DNA of 32,488 bases from positions 1 to 32,488 of the IMG/VR virus record IMGVR_UViG_3300027791_000079. One strand, 5' to 3'. Source of the DNA: a virus. Its lineage: Duplodnaviria > Caudoviricetes. The position numbers and the translations under genes were made by a program. Shown piece by piece: positions 1,139 to 28,144 of this stretch. Position 1 is the stretch's first letter; the number at the start of each line of letters is the position of its first letter. The notes under the pieces were generated by a model, which had not been told where the DNA came from, searched no databases, and saw only the letters and a list, made by a program, of their open reading frames with translations.

Positions 1139-2098
1139 TTATACACCAGTCGGCAGTGTTACGTTACCATCTGCGTCTGGTTGTAGTGTTTGTGCTTGTT
1201 GCTCTGCTTTTTGTCTTTCTTGTTCAACATACATAGGACCCACATTATCCAGAAGATATTGCTGATTTTCCATACAGAATACATATGAACCTGAGTGTCT
1301 TAATAGAACACGTTTGTCCATGTAGATTTTTCCACCTAGATCACGCCAGTTTTCACAGAATGTCCAGTCTTCTGAATAGTAGCGATTCTGACGTACAGCA
1401 GTGTCGAAGTAAGTCTTTAGATATTGATCGTATACTGGGTCGAGTCCGATGTCATTTTTATATTGCTTCACAGCAGGGTGACTATTTAATTTCTCAAACA
1501 CGTGTTTCTTCATCAATAAGAAACCAGTACCTGCTTTAGATACTTCTTGGAATCCATCTGGACCTTCTTCAGCACCTTCGAATCCGTTCACTACCCATTT
1601 GATCGGCATAGTCTTCATTGGATATAATCCACCAATAACATCTACATCTTTGTTTAAGAGTACTAGCAAATGCCACGGCTCCCAACCAATGTCTGCATCG
1701 ATAAACATTAAATGAGTTGCGTCTTCCATATGTAAGAACTTAGCAGTCAAAGTATTTCTTGCTCTACTGATCAATGATTCATTCACCATTGTTTCTAGTG
1801 TCCAGTCAATATTCAACTGACGAGCAGTATTTGCCCACTTGATGAATGACATGAATGTAGATTCAGTAAGCATACCACCATAACATGGCATAGCAATATG
1901 AACTTTAGTAGTACGTATAAAATCTACGTTAACTTGAATCTGTCCAGGTGCTAGTTCTTGTGGTGGGGCATCTGCGATTTCTTCAATTTTTTCCTGTAAT
2001 GTTTCTAAAGGAATAGTTGCTTCTTCTTTTTGCTTAGATGCTTTAGTTGTTTTTGCTGGTGCCTTCTTAGGGGCAGTTGTCTTTTTCTTTCCGGCCAT
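1139..2098 (-). CDS. GT-A fold (GT2-like) phage glycosyltransferase with Lys/Ala-rich N-terminal extension
   Basis: IAMPCYGG, ESLISRARN, DxD motif (FIDADI), GTGFLL, SEDWTFC and LRH.G motifs. AGGAG RBS. Confidence 0.8.
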   Translation of the reverse strand: MAGKKKTTAPKKAPAKTTKASKQKEEATIPLETLQEKIEEIADAPPQELAPGQIQVNVDFIRTTKVHIAMPCYGGMLTESTFMSFIKWANTARQLNIDWTLETMVNESLISRARNTLTAKFLHMEDATHLMFIDADIGWEPWHLLVLLNKDVDVIGGLYPMKTMPIKWVVNGFEGAEEGPDGFQEVSKAGTGFLLMKKHVFEKLNSHPAVKQYKNDIGLDPVYDQYLKTYFDTAVRQNRYYSEDWTFCENWRDLGGKIYMDKRVLLRHSGSYVFCMENQQYLLDNVGPMYVEQERQKAEQQAQTLQPDADGNVTLPTGV

Positions 2099-2174: not shown

Positions 2175-4943
2175 TTATTTTTCTTCGATATAATCAGTGG
2201 TTTCGGACAAATCTATTTTGTTCCAAAATGCTTTGGGTGACAGTCTAGGAGTCTGCTGTCTTAATACTCTAGGTGCTGATGTATCTCTAGTGCCTCCAAA
2301 GTATTCTTTGAGTTGAATAGTCTTAATATGTAACTTTTCTAGTAAGTCTTCAGTAAACCTAAAGTCATTATCATCTGGATTGTAGTTTTCTATGTAGTCG
2401 ATGAGTTTAGTTATACTCTCCATCGCATCTAACATGTCTACAGGTAAAAGTTTTGCATCTGCTAGTTCAGCAAATTCTTGTTTTGCATTAAGCAATTCAG
2501 CCTGTAGTCTTGCTAACAGTTCTTCTTGCTCTGCTCTACGTTCACTATAGTAATTGTTTTCACGTTCTTGGGTTCTTTCTTTTTCTGCTCTGACTTTGTT
2601 TATGTCTACTACTTTGTTGTCTGTTTCTTTACCGAAGCCTCTGAGTTGAACAACGTTATCTTTTTCTTCTTCCATGAGTTCAAACAGTTTACGATGTAAG
2701 TCAACTGACTTAGACTTTTGTTCGTCTGTAGTTTCTTTGATCATGCCACGAATCTTGTTTATACTTTCATTTATTCGGGAAGGCATATAATTATCAAAGT
2801 TAGTCTGAGGCAGTTCTGTTCTAGTTTTTTCTATTTGTTTTGCTATTGGGGAATCAGCAGGGGATAACTTTTTAATTTCACTTTTTGTTTTAAGTTCTGC
2901 TTTTCTTTTTGCCATACGTTTTAAACTTGGATTATAACCTTTGACATCTCTATCAGTTAAGTTATAACCTTCTTGTTCCATTTTTTCAATTTCAGCAGTA
3001 TAATGCTTGTTAAATATATCATCGTATGTAATATCAGTTGCGTTCGCCGTTCCACCTGCTAAGGCTCCTAATGTTAAGGCTCCTATTGCTAGGTCTTTAC
3101 CAACACCTTCACTGACATAATTTCTATCATCGTCTGTGTCAAAGTAGTTTAGTTGTTGCAAGACTTCATCTATTACACTACTGCTATCAACAACATCTAT
3201 AACTCTACCACTAGCAAAGTTCCCCATACGTTGACCATGATGATCCATTTCTGGGTCTACGATATCTTCAACATCTAAATCAGATAATACACTGTAGATA
3301 TTGGCTTCTATTGCTTCTCTACTTTCAAATTCATCTTCATGTCCTTCAAAAGCATTTACTAAAGCATTGATTGCGGCATCTCTAATGATACTTCTTTCTT
3401 CGCCTTCATTGAATCCTTGTCTTCTACCATTTAAGTTTGGTGTATCTGTTAACGGCATTTCAATTTGCATACCTACTCCTACATTTTGTGAATCATGGTT
3501 CCAGTATTGCTTTGATTGATCAGGATCAACGAATGTTTCAGTAAAGAAGCCGGCAAGTTTCAATTCATCAACTGCTTTCTGTATAAATTCTGGTTTTGGT
3601 GTAGGCATAAATTGCAGGAGTTTCTCCGCATCACCTGTTGCTATAGCAGGAAATCTAAGCCACTTTTTTTCTCCTATAGTAACATTTCCATCTTCATCCG
3701 TTTCGGTATCTATATAATAAACTAGGTCTGATGTATCTGGAACATCCTCTTTCGAGTATGCAGTGACGTATTTACCTTGAGTATCCTGATAAACAAATAC
3801 TTCCTCTGCATTTGTTTTGCTAAATTGTAATCCTAATGCAAGGATACCGATGGCAAGTTTTTCTTTTAAACCTTCATCTAACTGCTCTGGACTTACAAAT
3901 GCTTCGTCTACTTGTTTGTCTTTCTTAAATGGTGATAATTTGCCGTCTGCATCTCTTTTAGTAGGTTGAGGTATTTTGTCACCTAATTTCTTCTTCATGT
4001 TTTGAAATTCTTTATTAGATGCATAATCTGCCGCAGTAGGAGTAGATGTTGGTTTGCCGTCTGCTCCCATAAATCCACTAACGTATTTAACTTCATCTAC
4101 TTGCTCAGGGTCTCTGTAGGCTCTCTGTATTAGGCTGTCCATCGCTTTGTCTACTGATACAGTAAACTCTCTACCTTTTTTATCAGTAACTACAATATTA
4201 GTTGAATGATCATCAACTGCTACTTTGTATCCTTTTGATTGTAACTGTGCTTTAGTGTATCTATTTTGATCTCCGTACCAATCGATTACGAGTTGTTGTA
4301 TGTTTTCAGGTAAATCAGGACGCTTAAATGGTACGACATCACCCTCAGTGATTTCATCAGTAAGTGCAGAATCTAATAACTTTATTACGTTGTTAATTAA
4401 CTTGTCGTTGCCTGCAATGTGAGGGTAAATCTGTTCTACAAACTTGCCTTTGCCTTCTGTATCTAATTTAGGCCAGGCGTTTCTAATTTCAGTCGCACTT
4501 GTAATACCTGCAAATTCTTCTGTCGGTAAGTAATCCATGTAACCTACATCTTTAAATGATCCGACTTTAGACCCTGACTTAGGTAATGCTTGAAAGTACC
4601 CCGGTGTACCATCTTTCTTTGTTCCGCCGGGCTTTGGGTATTCGTTTCTATCTTTTTCACTTCGTACAAAAACAATAGAATCATTCTCTGGATCATACTT
4701 GTCTGTGATTTCTTTTGGAACAAACGGAGACCTTACTTGTACAAACTCTCCTGTTGGAACACCTGAGATTTGTGCTAATTTTTCTTTAATTTTAAAAGGA
4801 AAAGGTCTCTGTTTTTGACTATCACTAGCCGCAACATAGATATCAGAACTTGCCCCGTATTTCTTTTTGATGCTATTATACAATGCGGCATGTCCTGCAT
4901 GAAACGGGTGAAAACCCCCGGGCATGATAACAATATTTGCCAT
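2175..4943 (-). CDS. HIGH-superfamily nucleotidyltransferase (cytidylyltransferase-like) domain fused to a ~720 aa modular acidic extension; probable virion internal protein
   Basis: N-terminal PGGFHPFHAGH (HxGH) and ITSATEIR motifs within the first ~200 aa. The remainder is a mosaic of segments bounded by hydrophobic-X-E motifs. Confidence 0.7.
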   Translation of the reverse strand: MANIVIMPGGFHPFHAGHAALYNSIKKKYGASSDIYVAASDSQKQRPFPFKIKEKLAQISGVPTGEFVQVRSPFVPKEITDKYDPENDSIVFVRSEKDRNEYPKPGGTKKDGTPGYFQALPKSGSKVGSFKDVGYMDYLPTEEFAGITSATEIRNAWPKLDTEGKGKFVEQIYPHIAGNDKLINNVIKLLDSALTDEITEGDVVPFKRPDLPENIQQLVIDWYGDQNRYTKAQLQSKGYKVAVDDHSTNIVVTDKKGREFTVSVDKAMDSLIQRAYRDPEQVDEVKYVSGFMGADGKPTSTPTAADYASNKEFQNMKKKLGDKIPQPTKRDADGKLSPFKKDKQVDEAFVSPEQLDEGLKEKLAIGILALGLQFSKTNAEEVFVYQDTQGKYVTAYSKEDVPDTSDLVYYIDTETDEDGNVTIGEKKWLRFPAIATGDAEKLLQFMPTPKPEFIQKAVDELKLAGFFTETFVDPDQSKQYWNHDSQNVGVGMQIEMPLTDTPNLNGRRQGFNEGEERSIIRDAAINALVNAFEGHEDEFESREAIEANIYSVLSDLDVEDIVDPEMDHHGQRMGNFASGRVIDVVDSSSVIDEVLQQLNYFDTDDDRNYVSEGVGKDLAIGALTLGALAGGTANATDITYDDIFNKHYTAEIEKMEQEGYNLTDRDVKGYNPSLKRMAKRKAELKTKSEIKKLSPADSPIAKQIEKTRTELPQTNFDNYMPSRINESINKIRGMIKETTDEQKSKSVDLHRKLFELMEEEKDNVVQLRGFGKETDNKVVDINKVRAEKERTQERENNYYSERRAEQEELLARLQAELLNAKQEFAELADAKLLPVDMLDAMESITKLIDYIENYNPDDNDFRFTEDLLEKLHIKTIQLKEYFGGTRDTSAPRVLRQQTPRLSPKAFWNKIDLSETTDYIEEK

Positions 4944-5516: not shown

Positions 5517-7802
5517 TTATGGTAACTTAGGATTATCTTCTACTTCGATAATACCGTCATCTCCTACTTGTGCTATTTGTTTTTTAGTTGATGCAAAATC
5601 AATTGCATCAGTTTTATCATCAATTAAACACATAATATTTGAATCTTTAATCTTCTCAAATAAAATCTTCTTACTTAAAGGGACTCGTATGAGTTCATCA
5701 ATCTTTCTTGCTAATGGTCTAGCACCTAATTTAGAATCATATCCTTCTTTAGCAAGACGATCAATTGCTTTCTCATCAAAGTTAAGAGTGATGTTATGCT
5801 TTTCAATAAGTGCTTTCTGAAGATCAGCAACAAACTTAATAACAATTTTCTTAATTGCTAACATATCAAGTTTACCAAACTTACAAACCATGTCAAGTCT
5901 ATTTCTAAACTCAGGCTTAAAGAAGTTCTTCATTGCTTTCTCATCTTCGCCTAGTTTATCAGGATCACCGAAGCCAATGTTTGAACGTTCACCATCTGCA
6001 CTACCTAAGTTAGATGTGAGAATGATTAAGCAGTTCTTACATGATACTTGCTTACCATTAGATCCTGTGATAGTACCTTCATCTAACATCTGTAAGAAAA
6101 TATTAAAGATATCAGGGTGTGCTTTCTCAACTTCGTCAAACAATAGAATTGAATGAGGTTGTTTACTTAAGTCTGATATCAAGCGGCCGCCTTGCACTTG
6201 TGAATCACTGAAACCAACGTAACCTGGGGGAGGTCCTATCAAACTGCTTACACTGTGCTTCTCTGAATACTCGGACATATCGTATTTGAGTAGTGGCATA
6301 TCTAAGTTACTAGACAGCAATTTAGCCAATTCTGTTTTTCCCGTGCCTGTTGGTCCTAAGAATAGAAAACTTGCAATAGGTTTAGTCTCGTTACCGATTC
6401 CTGCAAACGATACATAAACTCTTTCGATTACATCGTCAACTACATTATCTTGACCATATAACTTGCTCTTAACATTAACGTCTAAGTTAGTAATACGATC
6501 TACATTGTCCCCTTTAAGTTTGTCAGCAGGGACGCCTGTGAACTTCTCTACTTGATCTAAGATCAATGACTTTGTTATATCAACACCTTTGTTCTCTAAT
6601 ACACGTTGCTTTGCACATGCGGCATCAAGTAAGTCAATAGACTTATCTGGATTCTTTCTATCATGTATGTATCTGTTAGCCATTTCAACACTTGATTCAA
6701 TCGCATCTTCTGTGATATGAACGTTGTGAAAATCATTTAATCTTTCTGACAAGCCACGTAAAATTCTGACTGTTGTGTCTGTGCTAGGCTCATCGATTGT
6801 TACACGATAGAATCTACGCATTAATGCTCTGTCTTTCTCAAACGATTCGTAGTACTCTTCCCATGTAGTTGATGCTATTACTTTAAGATTACCTTTAGTA
6901 ATTGCAGGCTTAATCATGTTAGCAAAGTCAACTGACCCATTAGACGTTTGTCCTGCTCCACCCATTGTATGTGCTTCATCAATGAATAGAATACAATTCT
7001 TTTTAACTTCTAATGCTGAAAGAACTTCTTTAACTTTTTCTTCAAACTCACCTCTATACTTTGAGCCAGCAAGTAAACTACCAATCTCTAATGAATAGAC
7101 TTCATGTCCTTCTAAGAACTCAGGTACTTCTTCGTTGACAACTGCTGATGCAATGCCTTCTGCGATTGCAGTTTTACCTACACCCGGGTCACCTACCATT
7201 AATACATTTGCTTTAAATTTCTTTGCTAAGACATTAATGATGTCATCAATTTCTTTTGTACGACCTATAACAGGTTCTAACTTTTCTTCTCTTGCAAGTT
7301 GAGTTAAGTTAGTTGTGTATTCTTCTAAGATTTCATCTGCCTGTTCAGCATTGATTGAAGTTGTTTCTTGGTGTCTATAATTTTTCTGCCAAAAGTCAAT
7401 AAACTGAGCCTTTACAATGCCATACTTTAATAAGAAGTAATGTGCATGAGTATTCCCTTCAGTTGCTATTGACAAATATATATCAATAGTAGTAACTTGT
7501 CTACGTCCTGTAAATAGAACTTGTGTGACGCCTCTGTTCATTACACGTTCTAGTGAATTTGTTTTCTTAGGTACACACTCTGGATCTTTAGATTCAATAG
7601 CATGTAAGCCATTAAGATATGCTTCTATCTCACTGATCATTAAGTCAGTATCAACATTAAATTGATTCAATACTTTCTTAAACGGCGGATGCGTTACTAA
7701 TGCATGAAGTAAATGTTCAATAGTAACATATTCGTGGTTATAGGACTTTGCTGTCTCTACAGACCTGGAGATAATGTTTTCGATTTCTGGTGATGTGTTC
7801 AA
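5517..7802 (-). CDS. clpA: ATP-dependent Clp protease ATPase subunit, ClpA-like (Hsp100)
   Basis: Clp N-domain (HEYVTIEHLL) and two AAA+ modules (GDPGVGKT/FIDEAH; GPTGTGKT/LFDEVEKAHPD). IGF ClpP-docking loop present, no ClpB middle domain. TTG start with GAGGA RBS. Confidence 0.92.
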   Translation of the reverse strand: MNTSPEIENIISRSVETAKSYNHEYVTIEHLLHALVTHPPFKKVLNQFNVDTDLMISEIEAYLNGLHAIESKDPECVPKKTNSLERVMNRGVTQVLFTGRRQVTTIDIYLSIATEGNTHAHYFLLKYGIVKAQFIDFWQKNYRHQETTSINAEQADEILEEYTTNLTQLAREEKLEPVIGRTKEIDDIINVLAKKFKANVLMVGDPGVGKTAIAEGIASAVVNEEVPEFLEGHEVYSLEIGSLLAGSKYRGEFEEKVKEVLSALEVKKNCILFIDEAHTMGGAGQTSNGSVDFANMIKPAITKGNLKVIASTTWEEYYESFEKDRALMRRFYRVTIDEPSTDTTVRILRGLSERLNDFHNVHITEDAIESSVEMANRYIHDRKNPDKSIDLLDAACAKQRVLENKGVDITKSLILDQVEKFTGVPADKLKGDNVDRITNLDVNVKSKLYGQDNVVDDVIERVYVSFAGIGNETKPIASFLFLGPTGTGKTELAKLLSSNLDMPLLKYDMSEYSEKHSVSSLIGPPPGYVGFSDSQVQGGRLISDLSKQPHSILLFDEVEKAHPDIFNIFLQMLDEGTITGSNGKQVSCKNCLIILTSNLGSADGERSNIGFGDPDKLGEDEKAMKNFFKPEFRNRLDMVCKFGKLDMLAIKKIVIKFVADLQKALIEKHNITLNFDEKAIDRLAKEGYDSKLGARPLARKIDELIRVPLSKKILFEKIKDSNIMCLIDDKTDAIDFASTKKQIAQVGDDGIIEVEDNPKLP

Positions 7803-8706: not shown

Positions 8707-9255
8707 TTAAATGCCGGCTGCGGCTTGTATACTTTTAATGTATTCGTCTTTTGGTGTATCAGACTCTTTGTGATCTAGTCCTGCTTGATTTCTCATTTCA
8801 TTGAGTTCTTCTTCGATTGGATCTTCTTTTTCAATCTGATATTTTGCTGGGTTTAAGATAATTTTTTGTTTCATAATATCTAACTCTAGTGGATAGTCTT
8901 CAGCACCTATATTAACAGTATATTCATCTGCAGGAGTTCCTGTGAGTGTTTCTAACTCAGTCATTAATCCTAGAATTCTACGTGCTACCCATGAACGTCT
9001 TTCCATTTCTACAAACACTAACCATTTGTTAGGTTCAAGTTCGCCTTCACTAATACTTGCATCTAAGATATAATCATAGCCTCTTTCAAACCATGTAACT
9101 AAATCTTCTGCGACTAATTCTGACTTAACTGTAAATGTTACTGTGACAATATCTTTATCACTTCCCATCTTAGCGGCATACTCATCGATAGATATATACG
9201 GATAAATTTGTCCTTCCATATCTAAATAATTCAAACTTTCATTTATTATAGTCAT
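8707..9255 (-). CDS. Hypothetical phage protein (possible head-associated protein)
   Basis: 182 aa, TAATG overlap with the upstream gene. N-terminal IINE motif and C-terminal MRNQAGL / IQAAAGI motifs. Confidence 0.75.
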   Translation of the reverse strand: MTIINESLNYLDMEGQIYPYISIDEYAAKMGSDKDIVTVTFTVKSELVAEDLVTWFERGYDYILDASISEGELEPNKWLVFVEMERRSWVARRILGLMTELETLTGTPADEYTVNIGAEDYPLELDIMKQKIILNPAKYQIEKEDPIEEELNEMRNQAGLDHKESDTPKDEYIKSIQAAAGI

Positions 9256-14106: not shown

Positions 14107-14613
14107 CTATTTTAAAAATTCTTCGATGTCTAGACCGTAGTAGATACTATTTATACGGTGAATACCGATCAAAAACAAAACAAAACTTGATACACTTGAG
14201 CCTCTTCCGACACCCCAAACAATATTGTTTTCTCTCATTAAATCAACTAAGTATTTCATGTATTGAAGTAATAAGAACTGTCCTCGTTTTTGATACAGTA
14301 ATAGTTCTTTACCTACACGTTGAATTTCTTCTTCATGTTTGCATTGTGTTAATAACCACTTAGCAATATCAAACTCTCTATAGTGTTGAGGCATATGCCA
14401 TTTGCTTCGCATTTCTTCATCAAAGTCTGCGACTGACATTTGTGCTAGTGTATGTTCTATTAGTCCCGGAACGTTTTCGATCTCTAATGAAGGATCTATA
14501 TCTATTTTCATATCCGTCAGAGTATTTGTTAAATGTTGACTAGGATTTTTCATGTAGATATCTACTAAATCTCGTTCAGTATAGATAGGGCGTCCGTAGT
14601 AATCGTTAATCAT
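14107..14613 (-). CDS. Stand-alone fragment of DNA polymerase III alpha subunit (DnaE-like)
   Basis: WGVGRGSSVSSFVLFLIGIHRINSIYYGLDIEEFLK matches the DnaE GPGRGS...LGIT.IDP..Y.L.FERFL motif. Only 168 aa. Confidence 0.8.
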   Translation of the reverse strand: MINDYYGRPIYTERDLVDIYMKNPSQHLTNTLTDMKIDIDPSLEIENVPGLIEHTLAQMSVADFDEEMRSKWHMPQHYREFDIAKWLLTQCKHEEEIQRVGKELLLYQKRGQFLLLQYMKYLVDLMRENNIVWGVGRGSSVSSFVLFLIGIHRINSIYYGLDIEEFLK

Positions 14614-23324: not shown

Positions 23325-26300
23325 TTATTTGCTTAACTCATCCATCTTAAGCATTAGACCTGCTAGGCCATCATGTGACATTACAGAGCCTTCTTTAACT
23401 AAGTCAGCACCATTGTAGCCAGTGCGATCATTTTGACCTGCAATAACTGGAATAGTTGTTTGACCTGTTGATTTCTGCTTGTTAAGTCCACCTGAGATTA
23501 CTTTAGTCATAAAGTCGATATCTTGTTCAAATGAAGTTTCTGTGCCGTTTTTACCAGCATCGTTAGCCCATTCAGTAAGTTCTTCTTCTTCTTTCGTGTC
23601 TCCACATGCTTCATCAACCTCTTTCTCAGAATCGCCTTTCTTACCTTTCTTTTTATCTTGGTATGCTTTTAGACCTGCGGGTATCTTACCTTCTTCTAAG
23701 TCATCGTCTTCTGCTACTGCAAACTCTCTTTGATCTTCAGTTTGTGTCTCAGTGATTTCTTCGTTCTCAGTGTCGTTTACATCGTCCTTAGGTGCATCCT
23801 CTGCGCCTTCTTTAGTTAATAGTCTTTCATCATCGTGTTGTGATAATGGCTGAGTAGGTTCTTCTGATGCTTCTGCTCCTACTTCTGAAAGCATAGCCAT
23901 CATTTCTTTTAAATGATCATGTTCTTCGTCTCTGCTACCGAACTTGCCATATGAATCGTCTCTACGATCTTTCATAGACTGTTTCTTATCAGATTCTTTA
24001 CCAGTACGCATGCCTAATGACTCATCTTCTTTGTCATCATAACCTTGATCTTCATGCATTTCATCATATTCAATATCTTTAGTAACATCTTTGCCGTCTT
24101 TGCCTGGATGTCTGCGATCATCGTAGTCTGCATCATGTGCAACTTCTCTACCTGCTTTTTCAGCATGATCATCTCTTTCTACATCTGATTCTTCATCGAC
24201 TTTTTTGTCACCTTCAGTAGATGCATTCCAATCATACTTGTCATATAATCCTGCATCTTTTTCTTCTTCTACAGCATCATAGCCTTGACTCATTTCATCA
24301 ATCATGCCCATCATTTCTTCTAATGATTTTTCTCTATGCTCTGAATCTCTTTTTCCAAACTTACCGTAAGAGTCATCTCTACGTGCTTTGTCTGATTGTT
24401 TGTGATCTGATTCTTTGCCTGTTCTCATGCCCAATGACTCATCTTCTTTGTCATCATAGCCTTGTTCTTCATGCATATCGTCTGCTTGAGGTTTGACATC
24501 ATGGTCGTCTTCATACTCTTTGATGTCTCTGTGTTCTTCATCTCTCTTACCGAATTTACCGTAAGAGTCATCTCTACGATCTTTCATTGATTGATGCTTG
24601 CCTGATTCTTTACCTGTTCTCATGCCTAATGACTCGTCTTCTTTGTCATCATATCCTTGAGTTTCTTCCATAGACTTATCGCCACATCCTTCTTCCATAG
24701 CATGTTTATCACCGCATGATTCACATGCCGCGTCATCTACTTGTACATCAATGTCAGTACCTGGTGCTTCTACTTCGTCTTCAAAGTCTCCGTTAGGCAT
24801 ATCTACTATACCCATTAACTTAAGCATGTCATCATGTGAACCTTGTGGTTCTACTTCTACTTCAGGACTACCATAAAATGATCCAGTGTCTACTACTTCA
24901 GCATCAACATCAGCAACTTCTGCATCTCCATATTGACCTAAGCCAACATCTTTAACAAACTTGATTAACTTGTCTGCTTCTGCATCTGTTGCATTAACAC
25001 TAACTCTATCTGGTGTATTTTCTTCACCTTGAGTGATAGACATTGTATAGCCTTCATCAAGTTTTGATTTCATTTCTTTTTTACAATGATCAATCATTGT
25101 TTTTAATTTACCTTGATCACAGTTCGGATGCATTTTGCAAATCTCTGCTTTAGACTTTCCGTCTTTGCACATTTTTGTTATATGTGCTTTAGTAGGCATT
25201 CCATCTTTACCTTCAATTAAATGAAAATTTAGTTCTTGTTCTAATGATTCAAATGTCCACTCATCTTCTTCTAAGTATGCATCAGATTCTGTAGTTTTTG
25301 TGAATTCTTTTCCACCTACTTCAAACTTATCACCTGTATGTGCTTTTGCAAGTGCTCCTGAGAATGCATTACCTTCTTCAAATTCGTCTTCAGAAACTTC
25401 TCTTTCGACTGTTTGTGCGTCCCAATCATACTTGTCATATGCACCGGCATCATCTGCACCAACGTTTCCGTCTGGAGAAGATTCTGCTTCGCCCATTGCA
25501 CCATAAGATGCCATAGTATCTACAACTTCGCCTTCATTTTCATTAGTATTATCTGCGGCTTGTTGTGCTTTATGACCTAGATATGCTCCTGCTACAGTAC
25601 CTGATACACTAGGTAAAAAGCCTGCTTTTGCACCTAATACTCCACCTGCTACTGCTCCAGCTACGCCTTCTTCCATACCTGCGATTGGTTCATTTCTGAT
25701 TCCCATGCCACATGCTTCGTCTAAGCCTTCTTTATAGCCTTCGTGGTATGCTCTTGCACCTTCAGAACCTTCGTCATGAGGACATGAATATCCACCTTTA
25801 CATAAACCATGAGCATGACCCATGTGCTTTGCCGCTTTAAGAATGTGATGTGCGCCTTCTTTTAAGTTTGTTTTTGTATTTTTAATCATAATATTAAGTT
25901 CTTTTTTATTGCACTTAGGGTGCAGTTGTTGTATAGCAGATGTTGATAAACCTTCGTTACACATAGATTTCAAACGTGAAATACTTGGTAAGTTACGAGA
26001 TTTACTCTCTACATAAGTTTCTGGTGATGCTTTTCCGTCTGTCTTTCCTTTAGGATTTAAGACTTTGCCTTTCGCCGCTTTAGGGTTATTAGTAGGTTTC
26101 ACATCATAGTCCTTAGTTTTTTCTTTTACTAGCTGAGGTGTGTCAGCATCGTTGGCTGCCAATGCGGCGTTTGCCGCGGCATTACCTTTTTCATCATTAG
26201 ATGAATTGTGTGATCCGTCATCTGGCCCGTATTGAGCGGCCATATTAGCGCCTTCTTTTACTTTTTTACCTGAGATTACACTTTGAGTATTAGATCCATT

Positions 26301-26990
26301 GTCGCCCATTTGCGGTGTAATTTCTGGAAGTTTGATTGCTTCTTTTACTTTCATTTTTGATGAACGTTGTGTATCATATGAAAGTGGAGATTGTCCACCA
26401 TATGAACCTGATCCGTCACTTTCTCTCATGCCACCGCCACTAATTGGAGATGTAAGATCCATTGATGATTCAGGCGGAGTATCTGTTTCTTTCATCTTAC
26501 TAAATGTTTTAGCAAGGTTTGCTCTTTTTTCTGTTTTAGCATTAAACTTGTCTTTGTTTGCTAGTACATGTTTTGCGAATGCTGATGTAGACATTCCTGC
26601 TCTTTCTGCTTGTGCTTTGAAAGCACCTGGCTTCTTAACTGCGCCATCAATCCAATCTTCGGCTTCTTGTATTTCTTGTTCACCGATAGTTAGTTCGCCT
26701 GCATCCATTGCTGTTTTTAATTGATTAGCAACTGTTGGATTAGTGACTGTTCCGATTGTCTGTCCATCTTTTTGAATTTCTTGTGCAGGTTGACCTGATG
26801 CCGGGGCGATTGATAATTCTTCAAAGACCTTTTTTAATGAAGGTAGTTTAAATTCTTTAGTTACTGAATCAGATTCAGTAAGCATATTGCTTGGTCTAGG
26901 TTTTTTAGATTCCTTTTTAGGTTCTTTTTTAACTAATGACTCTTTCTCTGTCACTTTGTCAAATTTAGTTAATATGTCTTTAAAATCCAT
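23325..26990 (-). CDS. Large acidic, modular, repeat-containing protein; probable internal head (scaffold/ejection-like) protein
   Basis: 1221 aa, E/D/K-rich, many hydrophobic-X-E motifs and internally duplicated modules. Located in the head/tail gene region. Confidence 0.6.
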   Translation of the reverse strand: MDFKDILTKFDKVTEKESLVKKEPKKESKKPRPSNMLTESDSVTKEFKLPSLKKVFEELSIAPASGQPAQEIQKDGQTIGTVTNPTVANQLKTAMDAGELTIGEQEIQEAEDWIDGAVKKPGAFKAQAERAGMSTSAFAKHVLANKDKFNAKTEKRANLAKTFSKMKETDTPPESSMDLTSPISGGGMRESDGSGSYGGQSPLSYDTQRSSKMKVKEAIKLPEITPQMGDNGSNTQSVISGKKVKEGANMAAQYGPDDGSHNSSNDEKGNAAANAALAANDADTPQLVKEKTKDYDVKPTNNPKAAKGKVLNPKGKTDGKASPETYVESKSRNLPSISRLKSMCNEGLSTSAIQQLHPKCNKKELNIMIKNTKTNLKEGAHHILKAAKHMGHAHGLCKGGYSCPHDEGSEGARAYHEGYKEGLDEACGMGIRNEPIAGMEEGVAGAVAGGVLGAKAGFLPSVSGTVAGAYLGHKAQQAADNTNENEGEVVDTMASYGAMGEAESSPDGNVGADDAGAYDKYDWDAQTVEREVSEDEFEEGNAFSGALAKAHTGDKFEVGGKEFTKTTESDAYLEEDEWTFESLEQELNFHLIEGKDGMPTKAHITKMCKDGKSKAEICKMHPNCDQGKLKTMIDHCKKEMKSKLDEGYTMSITQGEENTPDRVSVNATDAEADKLIKFVKDVGLGQYGDAEVADVDAEVVDTGSFYGSPEVEVEPQGSHDDMLKLMGIVDMPNGDFEDEVEAPGTDIDVQVDDAACESCGDKHAMEEGCGDKSMEETQGYDDKEDESLGMRTGKESGKHQSMKDRRDDSYGKFGKRDEEHRDIKEYEDDHDVKPQADDMHEEQGYDDKEDESLGMRTGKESDHKQSDKARRDDSYGKFGKRDSEHREKSLEEMMGMIDEMSQGYDAVEEEKDAGLYDKYDWNASTEGDKKVDEESDVERDDHAEKAGREVAHDADYDDRRHPGKDGKDVTKDIEYDEMHEDQGYDDKEDESLGMRTGKESDKKQSMKDRRDDSYGKFGSRDEEHDHLKEMMAMLSEVGAEASEEPTQPLSQHDDERLLTKEGAEDAPKDDVNDTENEEITETQTEDQREFAVAEDDDLEEGKIPAGLKAYQDKKKGKKGDSEKEVDEACGDTKEEEELTEWANDAGKNGTETSFEQDIDFMTKVISGGLNKQKSTGQTTIPVIAGQNDRTGYNGADLVKEGSVMSHDGLAGLMLKMDELSK
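23919..24659 (-). repeat. Three copies of a 43-aa module QGYDDKEDESLGMRTGKES..(K/H)QS.K.RRDDSYGKFG.RD.EH
   Basis: Copies at 24531-24659, 24336-24464 and 23919-24047. Confidence 0.93.
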
Positions 26991-27000
26991 AATATTATCC

Positions 27001-27627
27001 TTATAGTCCCGCTGATGTCTCAGGCTTTGGAGCCCTTTTTATATCAGTGAACGGACTCTTATCACCTTTAACTGAATCATCTGTCCAAGGCTTCCAAGGA
27101 TCAAATGAATCTTTAGTATTCTTTTGATCAGCAGGTAAACCTACTTTGCCTACATTCTTATGTTCAGCATGTTTATGAATACTATCTAAATACTTATCAC
27201 CATATTCTTTGCTGGCTTCTTTTCCATTGTCATTCATTTCGTCATGCTGTAACAAAGGAGTATCTTTCATTTCATTTTCATAGCCAACCATCTCGTTGTC
27301 AATGCTATCGTCAAATGCAGTATTAACCATTCTTACATAGTTAATGTTGTGCCCTAGCAATTGTGCTAGTTGTTGAATCATTGGTTCAGTTACTGGATAT
27401 GCGAATTTACATTTAAAGATGTGAACTTGTTCATTTGAAAGATTGGGAAATCCATACGGTGATTTCATAATCGGTGTAGTAGTTGGGCCCTTGATTTCTT
27501 GAGGCTCAAACTTTTGTAAGTTATGTTTAAATAACTCTAAGAAATTTTTGCTACAGTCTCCAGCAACTTTGATCGTACAATCATAAGTGTGAATGGATTC
27601 TGCAATGTAATGTTTTAAACTTTTCAT
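27001..27627 (-). CDS. Hypothetical protein with T4 capsid-targeting-like N-terminus
   Basis: Start reassigned to ATG 27627 (GGGA RBS, late motif at 27650-27657). MKSLKHYIAE resembles the T4 internal protein leader MKTYQEFIAE. Confidence 0.7.
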   Translation of the reverse strand: MKSLKHYIAESIHTYDCTIKVAGDCSKNFLELFKHNLQKFEPQEIKGPTTTPIMKSPYGFPNLSNEQVHIFKCKFAYPVTEPMIQQLAQLLGHNINYVRMVNTAFDDSIDNEMVGYENEMKDTPLLQHDEMNDNGKEASKEYGDKYLDSIHKHAEHKNVGKVGLPADQKNTKDSFDPWKPWTDDSVKGDKSPFTDIKRAPKPETSAGL

Positions 27628-27649
27628 ATTGTATAGTTCCCGTATAATA

Positions 27650-27657
27650 TATTTATC
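27650..27657 (-). promoter_or_regulatory. T4-late-like promoter (GATAAATA) overlapping the upstream TGA stop
   Basis: Recurrent motif. Confidence 0.6.
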
Positions 27658-28144
27658 ATTCCTCTGAGTTTTTCCCACTTAAAACTCGCAGTAATTCGTT
27701 GCGATCTAAGTTTTGGCCTGAGCCCTCGCCTAAAGGAATATTGTCAATTTTTTCGTCAGCCTTTGCTTGACGTTGATCTAGTGTTGCTTTCTTTAATTGT
27801 AAGTCAATCATCTTTAATTTCTTGTTTAGTTTAGCAGTCTTAGCAGTAATAGCATGGTTTAACATGTTACTCGCAACACTAAATATATCTCCACTGAAAC
27901 GTGAATCTACTTGCATACCTAAGTCCATTAAATCTTGGAAACTTGTTGATGCTTTATCGGCTAAATCATCTAACTCTCTGTCAGATGCTTCTAGTCCTCT
28001 AACTGTAGGTAATGCAGTTTCAATCTTCTCTAAGTTATTTAATGCTTCTTTAGTAACTTCTTTTGCTACGCCCGGAATAGGTTCATTCAGTTCGTTTTCA
28101 TCACTAGATGCTATATCAAATAATTCTTCAAGTTTCTTTGTCAT
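27656..28144 (-). CDS. Helical/coiled-coil phage protein, possibly terminase small subunit
   Basis: 162 aa, helical, next to the head completion gene. Function inferred from size and context only. Confidence 0.4.
   Translation of the reverse strand: MTKKLEELFDIASSDENELNEPIPGVAKEVTKEALNNLEKIETALPTVRGLEASDRELDDLADKASTSFQDLMDLGMQVDSRFSGDIFSVASNMLNHAITAKTAKLNKKLKMIDLQLKKATLDQRQAKADEKIDNIPLGEGSGQNLDRNELLRVLSGKNSEE

Follow-up and report, generated by a model that had tools for sequence, protein, structure and literature searches.

How can an export signal serve a phage protein when it lies deep inside the polypeptide chain? The question is raised by a gene at positions 2175-4943 (minus strand) of a 32,488-nucleotide viral sequence (IMG/VR record IMGVR_UViG_3300027791_000079; "the window" denotes this whole stretch), which according to the open reading frame (ORF) listing encodes a modular protein of 922 amino acids (aa). 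A preliminary description had placed the gene at 2175-4350, which covers only the tail of an ORF that reaches 4943, and had read the product as a polyprotein packaged into the phage head, cut there by the head protease after hydrophobic-x-Glu motifs and injected as pieces, two of them led by export signals. We find that modules are exchanged at these sites in homologous proteins, that a signal-like leader stands directly behind such a site in unrelated gene contexts, and that related genomes encode the protease together with motif-rich head proteins. On this evidence we hold the chances to be evenly balanced that the 922-aa protein is packaged into the head as a polyprotein and cut during maturation, with some of its injected pieces addressed for export.

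Organization of the 922-aa protein

The protein divides into the following parts:

4344..4943, minus strand (residues 1-200): HIGH-type nucleotidyltransferase domain by sequence, ending in ITE200
4092..4343, minus strand (residues 201-284): module B, ending in VDE284; present in 100 of 100 close homologues
3903..4091, minus strand (residues 285-347): optional module C, ending in VDE347; in 20 of 100 close homologues
3873..3902, minus strand (residues 348-357): 10-residue stub similar to the beginning of module D, ending in LDE357
3807..3872, minus strand (residues 358-379): predicted Sec-type signal 1, 22 aa, ending in T-N-A
3537..3806, minus strand (residues 380-469): cargo 1, a small beta-rich domain, ending in FTE469; in 1 of 100 close homologues
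3405..3536, minus strand (residues 470-513): module D, ending in FNE513; in 100 of 100 close homologues
3108..3404, minus strand (residues 514-612): acidic module E, optional or replaceable, ending in VSE612
3039..3107, minus strand (residues 613-635): predicted Sec-type signal 2, 23 aa, ending in A-N-A
2766..3038, minus strand (residues 636-726): cargo 2, ending in INE726; in 3 of 100 close homologues
2202..2765, minus strand (residues 727-914): helical module G, containing IKE737 (no border) and ending in LSE914
2178..2201, minus strand (residues 915-922): conserved C-terminal tag of 8 residues (D-Y-L/I-x-E), a candidate packaging tag

Module exchange at hydrophobic-x-Glu sites

The ten motifs that had been singled out as delimiters all lie in the ORF in the order given, at residues 200, 284, 347, 357, 469, 513, 612, 726, 737, and 914. 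Homologues support nine of them as borders; the tenth, IKE737, was never seen as one and is conserved in 95 of 97 aligned close homologues. There are 15 further hydrophobic-x-Glu sites, giving 25 in all if Met is allowed in the first position.

Comparison of homologues bore out the expectation that modules are gained, lost, and exchanged exactly at such sites. One relative (L001/P0002) is 98% identical over residues 1-616 and lacks precisely residues 613-726, that is, signal 2 with cargo 2. Other near-identical relatives lack residues 348-469, 285-469, or 514-612, or carry different modules in those slots. Module C is cleanly missing or substituted in other homologues, module E was found in 48 of 100 close homologues at the score threshold used (it is missing from P0034), and module B occupies another position in the chain of distant homologues such as P0108. 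Border statistics for modules D and G were drawn from 100 complete close homologues. A hydrophobic-x-Glu motif directly precedes module D in all 100, and a hydrophobic or aromatic residue-x-Glu precedes module G in all 96 with a matched start (Tyr being the first residue in 43); in both cases the preceding module varies.

The same association holds across the wider family. In a set of 86 dissimilar representatives, taken from 172 complete members, 399 homology breakpoints were counted; 172 of these lie no more than 5 residues from a motif, where 98.6 were expected. The breakpoints are not independent events, and the formal p-value therefore overstates the excess. Both controls were below expectation (Asp, 69 vs 116.9; Lys, 71 vs 83.7). 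Global pairwise gap mapping proved too noisy where modules are substituted rather than deleted and was replaced by these breakpoint and border counts. In contigs from four of four sequencing runs, one of which may be the window's own sample, position 2758/2761 is joined to 3108, where the Glu612 codon has its last base, and signal module 2 is skipped. Loose contig ends at 3106, 3535, and 4077, beside VSE612, FTE469, and VDE284, point to additional alternative modules in natural populations.

Signal-like leaders behind the sites

The two signal-like segments lie exactly where they had been placed, at 3872-3807 (residues 358-379) and 3107-3039 (residues 613-635). They hold the only uncharged hydrophobic stretches within residues 200-922, and both stretches start 5 residues past a site. 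As for the pattern said to be common to them, G-x4-L-A-I-G-x-L-x-L-G is in register when counted from the cut, and the Lys sits at differing positions. Signals 1 and 2 are identical in 8 of their first 14 residues and probably share an origin. Every copy examined (9 of signal 1 and 5 of signal 2) has an uncharged hydrophobic core and a small-x-Ala end at 22-24 residues.

The layout of a signal behind a site is kept in other genes and extends to twin-arginine translocation (Tat) signals on cargo of periplasmic type. Both segments recur in small stand-alone genes, behind a hydrophobic-x-Glu site and never at the start Met. For example, P0121 (144 aa) consists of a short leader, LDE, a diverged signal 2 (10 of 23 residues identical), and the same cargo (52 of 70). 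In six genes of 271-360 aa (P0126-P0131), signal 1 and the first 38 residues of its cargo stand behind an LDE at residue 16-29 and are continued by other domains. Of three stand-alone homologues of the domain behind signal 1 in P0130, two start with a membrane anchor or lipobox, as judged by eye, and a signal-1 leader in L187 accompanies a weak PDZ match. With a loose signal rule applied to all fetched proteins, 70 clusters have internal signal-like segments, and in 29 of them the segment follows a motif by no more than 10 residues (15.0 expected, p=1e-4; on inspection roughly half of these 29 look like noise), against 15 vs 14.8 for the Asp control and 24 vs 18.5 for Gln/Asn.

Tat-type leaders follow the same rule. 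Internal RR-x-F/L/I-L/I sites lie within 5 residues of a motif in 10 of 13 cases with a hydrophobic stretch and in 3 of 14 without one (p=0.006). Nine of these ten motif-adjacent sites read as Tat signals, with matches to PF10518/TIGR01409 near the cut-off. A twin-arginine signal stands 2-4 residues behind a site in nine proteins, four of which belong to the 922-aa family (L025, L039, L064, and L083). The named cargo suits such an address: it includes TonB-C/TolA-C behind the internal Tat signal of family member L025 (1804-3069) and an M48 protease behind a Tat signal in L072. A GH19 domain has a Tat leader in L138 and a Sec-like leader resembling those of the window in L153. Among the indirect evidence, this speaks most clearly for the non-Tat leaders being export signals. 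Two HD modules in relatives begin without a leader. As side observations, the family members in L055 and L057 (gene at 6001) carry a leaderless HD_4 module (RelA/SpoT-type hydrolase family), and a leader-bearing protein in L151 (6862-7653) has GNAT and ART-PolyVal domains. The L025 product could, as a guess, interfere with TonB- or Tol-dependent uptake. An automated leader-finding pattern gave false calls inside domains (L110, L136, L057, and the second protein of L039), and the pairs were read by eye. P0124 looks like an assembly chimera. Modules of P0110, P0115, P0111, and P0114 had been labelled GNAT and ParB from motifs; Pfam and NCBIfam gave no match to them, and the labels carry no weight here.

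Neither window cargo matches a family or fold in Pfam, PHROGs, ESM Atlas, or Foldseek (the last with the better of two cargo 1 structure models, which reach a predicted local distance difference test (pLDDT) score of 66 and 57). A GldN identity was rejected (E 0.009, under the cut-off), and scans of viral contigs with signal module 2 and P0127 gave no matches.

Phage context and enzyme domain

Judged by gene content, the source of the gene is a fragment of an uncultured marine jumbo myophage. Profile searches of the window identified tail sheath, tail tube, head closure, and baseplate genes along with ClpA, DnaJ, PhoH, and clamp loader, and the sequencing runs that contain the 922-aa gene are marine or seawater metagenomes. 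A complete relative of 349 kb (G004) has the same gene order, and 16 of the 17 window proteins tested matched it at 30-80% identity. For the G004 capsid protein, the identity to its counterparts in Vibrio phage 2.275.O, Sinorhizobium phage Phosso, PA5oct-like, and 121Q-like phages is 64-67%, and all of these infect Gram-negative hosts. No cultured carrier of the 922-aa family was found.

Homologues of the 922-aa gene occur at the same gene order, with locus translations of 207-1102 aa. The shortest (L082) consists of the enzyme domain and the C-terminal tag. Residues 1-200 match PF01467 below the cut-off (E 0.0076, 16.9 bits against 21), which many relatives exceed, and phrog_395 with E 3e-4; the H-x-G-H motif is invariant in 16 of 16. 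By sequence, this is a HIGH-type nucleotidyltransferase domain and the constant head of the family. It has 755 homologues among proteins of 507-1614 aa, 120 of the 755 being among the matches listed, and no solved relative by sequence search.

Among the neighbours, the downstream gene at 1139-2098 (minus strand) matches phrog_1574, is 80% identical to its G004 counterpart, and has no Pfam match; we presume from a DxD motif that its product resembles a glycosyltransferase. A DNA polymerase III alpha domain (PF07733, phrog_11127) is represented at 14107-14613 (minus strand) by a stand-alone fragment of 168 aa, as reported for this jumbo-phage group (PMC7824862).

A gp21-type head protease and its likely substrates

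T4 gp21 is reported to cut after Glu in I/L-x-E (bioRxiv 10.64898/2026.03.04.709575). The relatives bear out what processing of this kind would predict: they encode a protease of gp21 type, and their capsid and scaffold proteins contain the same sites. The protease family (PF03420) is present in seven of ten related records, and the three without it, the closest relatives, are fragments of 12-37% completeness; as it is missing only from fragmentary records, we infer that the window phage has a protease of its own. One relative's protease aligns to T4 gp21 (5JBL, E 2e-14). Its His and Ser fall on gp21 catalytic positions 85 and 140, and it has a motif at the C-terminal place that matches gp21. 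A relative's scaffold-like protein has 15 motifs against 3.8 expected. In four of four genomes, four motifs fall within the first 43 residues of the capsid protein, upstream of its match to mature T4 gp23. In PA5oct-like phages, the homologues of one motif-rich G004 protein are labelled virion structural protein in their record annotation. The capsid protein of phage RaK2 runs small, which has been read as a sign of processing (PMC3622015); the available text of PMC7247149 and PMC7318152 gives no cleavage sites for the jumbo-phage clade.

The window also encodes a second motif-rich protein (23325-26990, minus strand; 1221 aa, 19 vs 7.5 sites) with repeated acidic modules. A glycine-zipper module (25560-25667) lies directly behind MEE at residue 442, and the homologues of 746 aa (G004) and 1247 aa (L122) carry other inserts.

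How the 922-aa protein might enter the head is suggested by its C-terminus. The D-Y-L/I-x-E tag ends 172 of 174 complete family members, and a motif stands 0-4 residues ahead of it in 163 of the 172. Of the 2,691 proteins predicted at the fetched loci, only two more carry it: one is the latter half of a broken family gene, the other a protein called with an N-terminal extension at a family locus. N-terminal leaders that end in a hydrophobic-x-Glu site are present in the small genes that share signal modules with the 922-aa protein. Because the 922-aa protein has no such T4-type leader, we consider the C-terminal tag as a possible packaging route, and it is a candidate capsid-targeting signal, whose T4 counterpart is N-terminal. 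Scaffold-like and other motif-rich proteins end in a different tail, basic-x-(L/M/I)-(A/S)-G-(L/I), which is possibly a second core-binding tag (window 8707-8730, minus strand; L090:2082-3182, L094:12088-13983, L109:15755-16312, and L110:13215-15455). Short N-terminal leaders ending in IAE and INE, resembling T4 targeting leaders, occur in the window at 27001-27678 and 8707-9255 (both minus strand); the one at 27001-27678 would require translation to begin at a Met 18 codons inside the listed ORF.

Proposed processing and alternatives

We propose that the chain is loaded into the prohead and cut at exposed hydrophobic-x-Glu sites by the phage's T4 gp21-type protease, and that the pieces are ejected into the next host. 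The new N-terminus would then sort each piece: those without a signal (the nucleotidyltransferase and, in relatives, HD and GNAT modules) would act in the cytoplasm, and Sec or Tat signals would direct others to the envelope, so that the host would export the two signal-led pieces of the window protein to the periplasm or membrane of the newly infected cell. Cutting by the head protease at these sites is quite likely, packaging, perhaps through the C-terminal tag, is probable, and that the two predicted leaders act as export signals once exposed is somewhat less so. Cargos 1 and 2 might act early on the host envelope, which is a guess. No evidence bears on the superinfection exclusion or anti-defence role that had been suggested; as neither cargo has a known family or fold, both are guesses as well.

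Known virion-delivered proteins act in the cytoplasm or build an injection channel. With some reservation, we suggest that an uncultured jumbo-phage clade may use its head protease as a sorting switch, with Sec and Tat signals hidden until the capsid cut and export following within minutes of injection, before phage gene expression. The signals may be hidden so that cargo escapes export in the producing cell, and the sites may double as a plug-in format for effectors; we hold this equally tentatively. If true, phages would reach the host periplasm as infection begins without any need for translation, and this would account for hundreds of modular genes that lack annotation in aquatic jumbo phages. 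T4 heads reportedly accept foreign cargo (PMC5694885), which suggests a way to deliver proteins to the periplasm.

Several observations weigh against this proposal. Neither protease nor capsid gene lies in the 32-kb window or in the three closest (fragmentary) records, and three cultured relatives have neither the family nor any Tat match. The 922-aa protein begins with an enzyme domain and has no T4-type N-terminal capsid-targeting leader ending in I/L-x-E. Its motif count is 24 against 18.8 in shuffled sequence (p=0.105), a reversed control motif is enriched as well (30 vs 20.2, p=0.005), conserved motifs also lie inside domains (residues 54, 755, and 880), and 227 of the 399 breakpoints lie away from any motif. 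Motifs with a small residue after the Glu number 9 against 4.9 (p=0.048). The count being unconvincing, the case rests on the relatives. The Sec call follows our own rules, and the two leaders, likely paralogous, are not independent evidence. Their n-regions are weak, with a net charge of +1 and 0, plus the free amino group after a cut, and their h-regions (2.6 and 2.0) are milder than most Met-initiated signal-like starts in G004. The conservation of signal 1 matches that of its cargo (12 of 24 vs 18-20 of 38), which is unusual for a signal peptide. The L188 contig fuses a signal-1 leader to a fragment of the cytoplasmic PlsX; it is probably an assembly chimera, as the PlsX domain is partial and followed by what we take to resemble the start of a bacterial RNase III.

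Cutting need not mean packaging, since gp21 can act on a cytoplasmic host protein: expressed alone, it reportedly activates a host enzyme via an LPE-containing loop (bioRxiv 10.64898/2026.03.04.709575). The head protease might thus cut the polyprotein in the cytoplasm of the producing cell and release pieces for late export in lysis timing, envelope remodelling, or phage exclusion, without the pieces ever entering the virion. Late work on the envelope would be a fitting task for GH19 and M48 cargos, and the missing N-terminal targeting leader also agrees with this reading. We nevertheless think this unlikely. A late gene could use an ordinary Met-initiated signal, as several G004 proteins do, and hiding a signal behind a head-protease site would make most sense if export is to be avoided before packaging. 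The small signal-bearing genes moreover start with leaders like those of head proteins, and the virion label on the PA5oct-like homologues of the G004 motif-rich protein points the same way.

Similarly unlikely is that the pieces are packaged and cut, and the leaders serve as uncleaved membrane anchors or insertion helices that tether them to the inner membrane. The weak n-regions, Gly/Ala-rich h-regions, and conservation of signal 1 fit such a role, as do the glycine-zipper modules behind a motif in the 1221-aa window protein and in L122. Against it stand the small-x-Ala ends of all 9 signal-1 and all 5 signal-2 copies, the replacement of a Tat signal by a similar leader on GH19, and, weakly, a model that places signal 1 as a low-confidence helix separate from the cargo domain.

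That the leaders have no function and are left over from captured genes for exported proteins, within a packaged polyprotein, seems rather improbable. Both signal modules are rare accessories, and the cargo domains have conventionally exported homologues. The leaders, however, have no start Met, begin exactly at a site, and are kept or exchanged for other signal-like leaders while the cargo varies, and the Tat motifs hold their spacing of 2-4 residues in all nine proteins. Finally, it is very improbable that the motifs stay uncut and serve as seams for recombination or as tags that bind the scaffold, in a multi-domain protein acting as a whole, given that the same motif marks the capsid propeptide, scaffold, and protease ends in relatives and that an internal Tat or Sec signal has no known use unless N-terminal.

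Comparison with known systems

With the T4 internal proteins IPI-III and Alt, the 922-aa protein shares hydrophobic-x-Glu sites and, by prediction, a gp21-family protease, packaging, and ejection (PMC5694885). Alt is reported to be trimmed by gp21 at both ends, at ITE-6 and LTE-619, which fits a removable C-terminal tag here (PMC5694885). The T4 proteins are described as losing short terminal propeptides, whereas the 922-aa protein has many internal sites between swappable modules. Unlike them it has no N-terminal leader, its sites also allow V, M, F, and Y in the first position, and its pieces start with predicted export signals. An enzyme annotated as a cytidylyltransferase was detected in S-CREM2 virions (PMC10665884).

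Polyvalent proteins are likewise multi-domain effector chains thought to be delivered with DNA and processed (Iyer et al., 2017, PMC5512222). The several unrelated variable domains per chain by which they are recognized are also found in the 922-aa family, and relatives share with them GNAT and ART-PolyVal domains (L151) and peptidoglycan hydrolases. Their processing is ascribed to embedded or linked peptidases, unlike that proposed here (PMC5512222), and Pfam, PHROG, and NCBIfam searches found no polyvalent hallmark domain or embedded peptidase in the 922-aa protein. The term "signal peptide" does not occur in the available main text of PMC5512222 or PMC7824862.

The inner-head proteins of phiKZ-like phages and SPN3US share a Glu-specific head protease with many internal substrates (PMC10052503). 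They differ in the motif, A-x-E, and in that all identified cuts except the protease's own give N-terminal propeptides; the available text describes no unmasked export signals (PMC10052503). Classic Sec and Tat signal peptides (PF10518, TIGR01409) share the hydrophobic, small-x-Ala layout, the basic n-region being weak in the window leaders, and RR-x-F-L in relatives. Unlike these, the window leaders are internal, lack a Met, and would become N-terminal only after a cut.

Literature searches, in which subscription journals were thinly covered, found no paper describing export signals unmasked by a head protease, and such unmasking, if shown, would be new. Measured against known systems, the 922-aa protein most likely works like T4's internal proteins and Alt and resembles polyvalent proteins, while departing from what defines each of the two.

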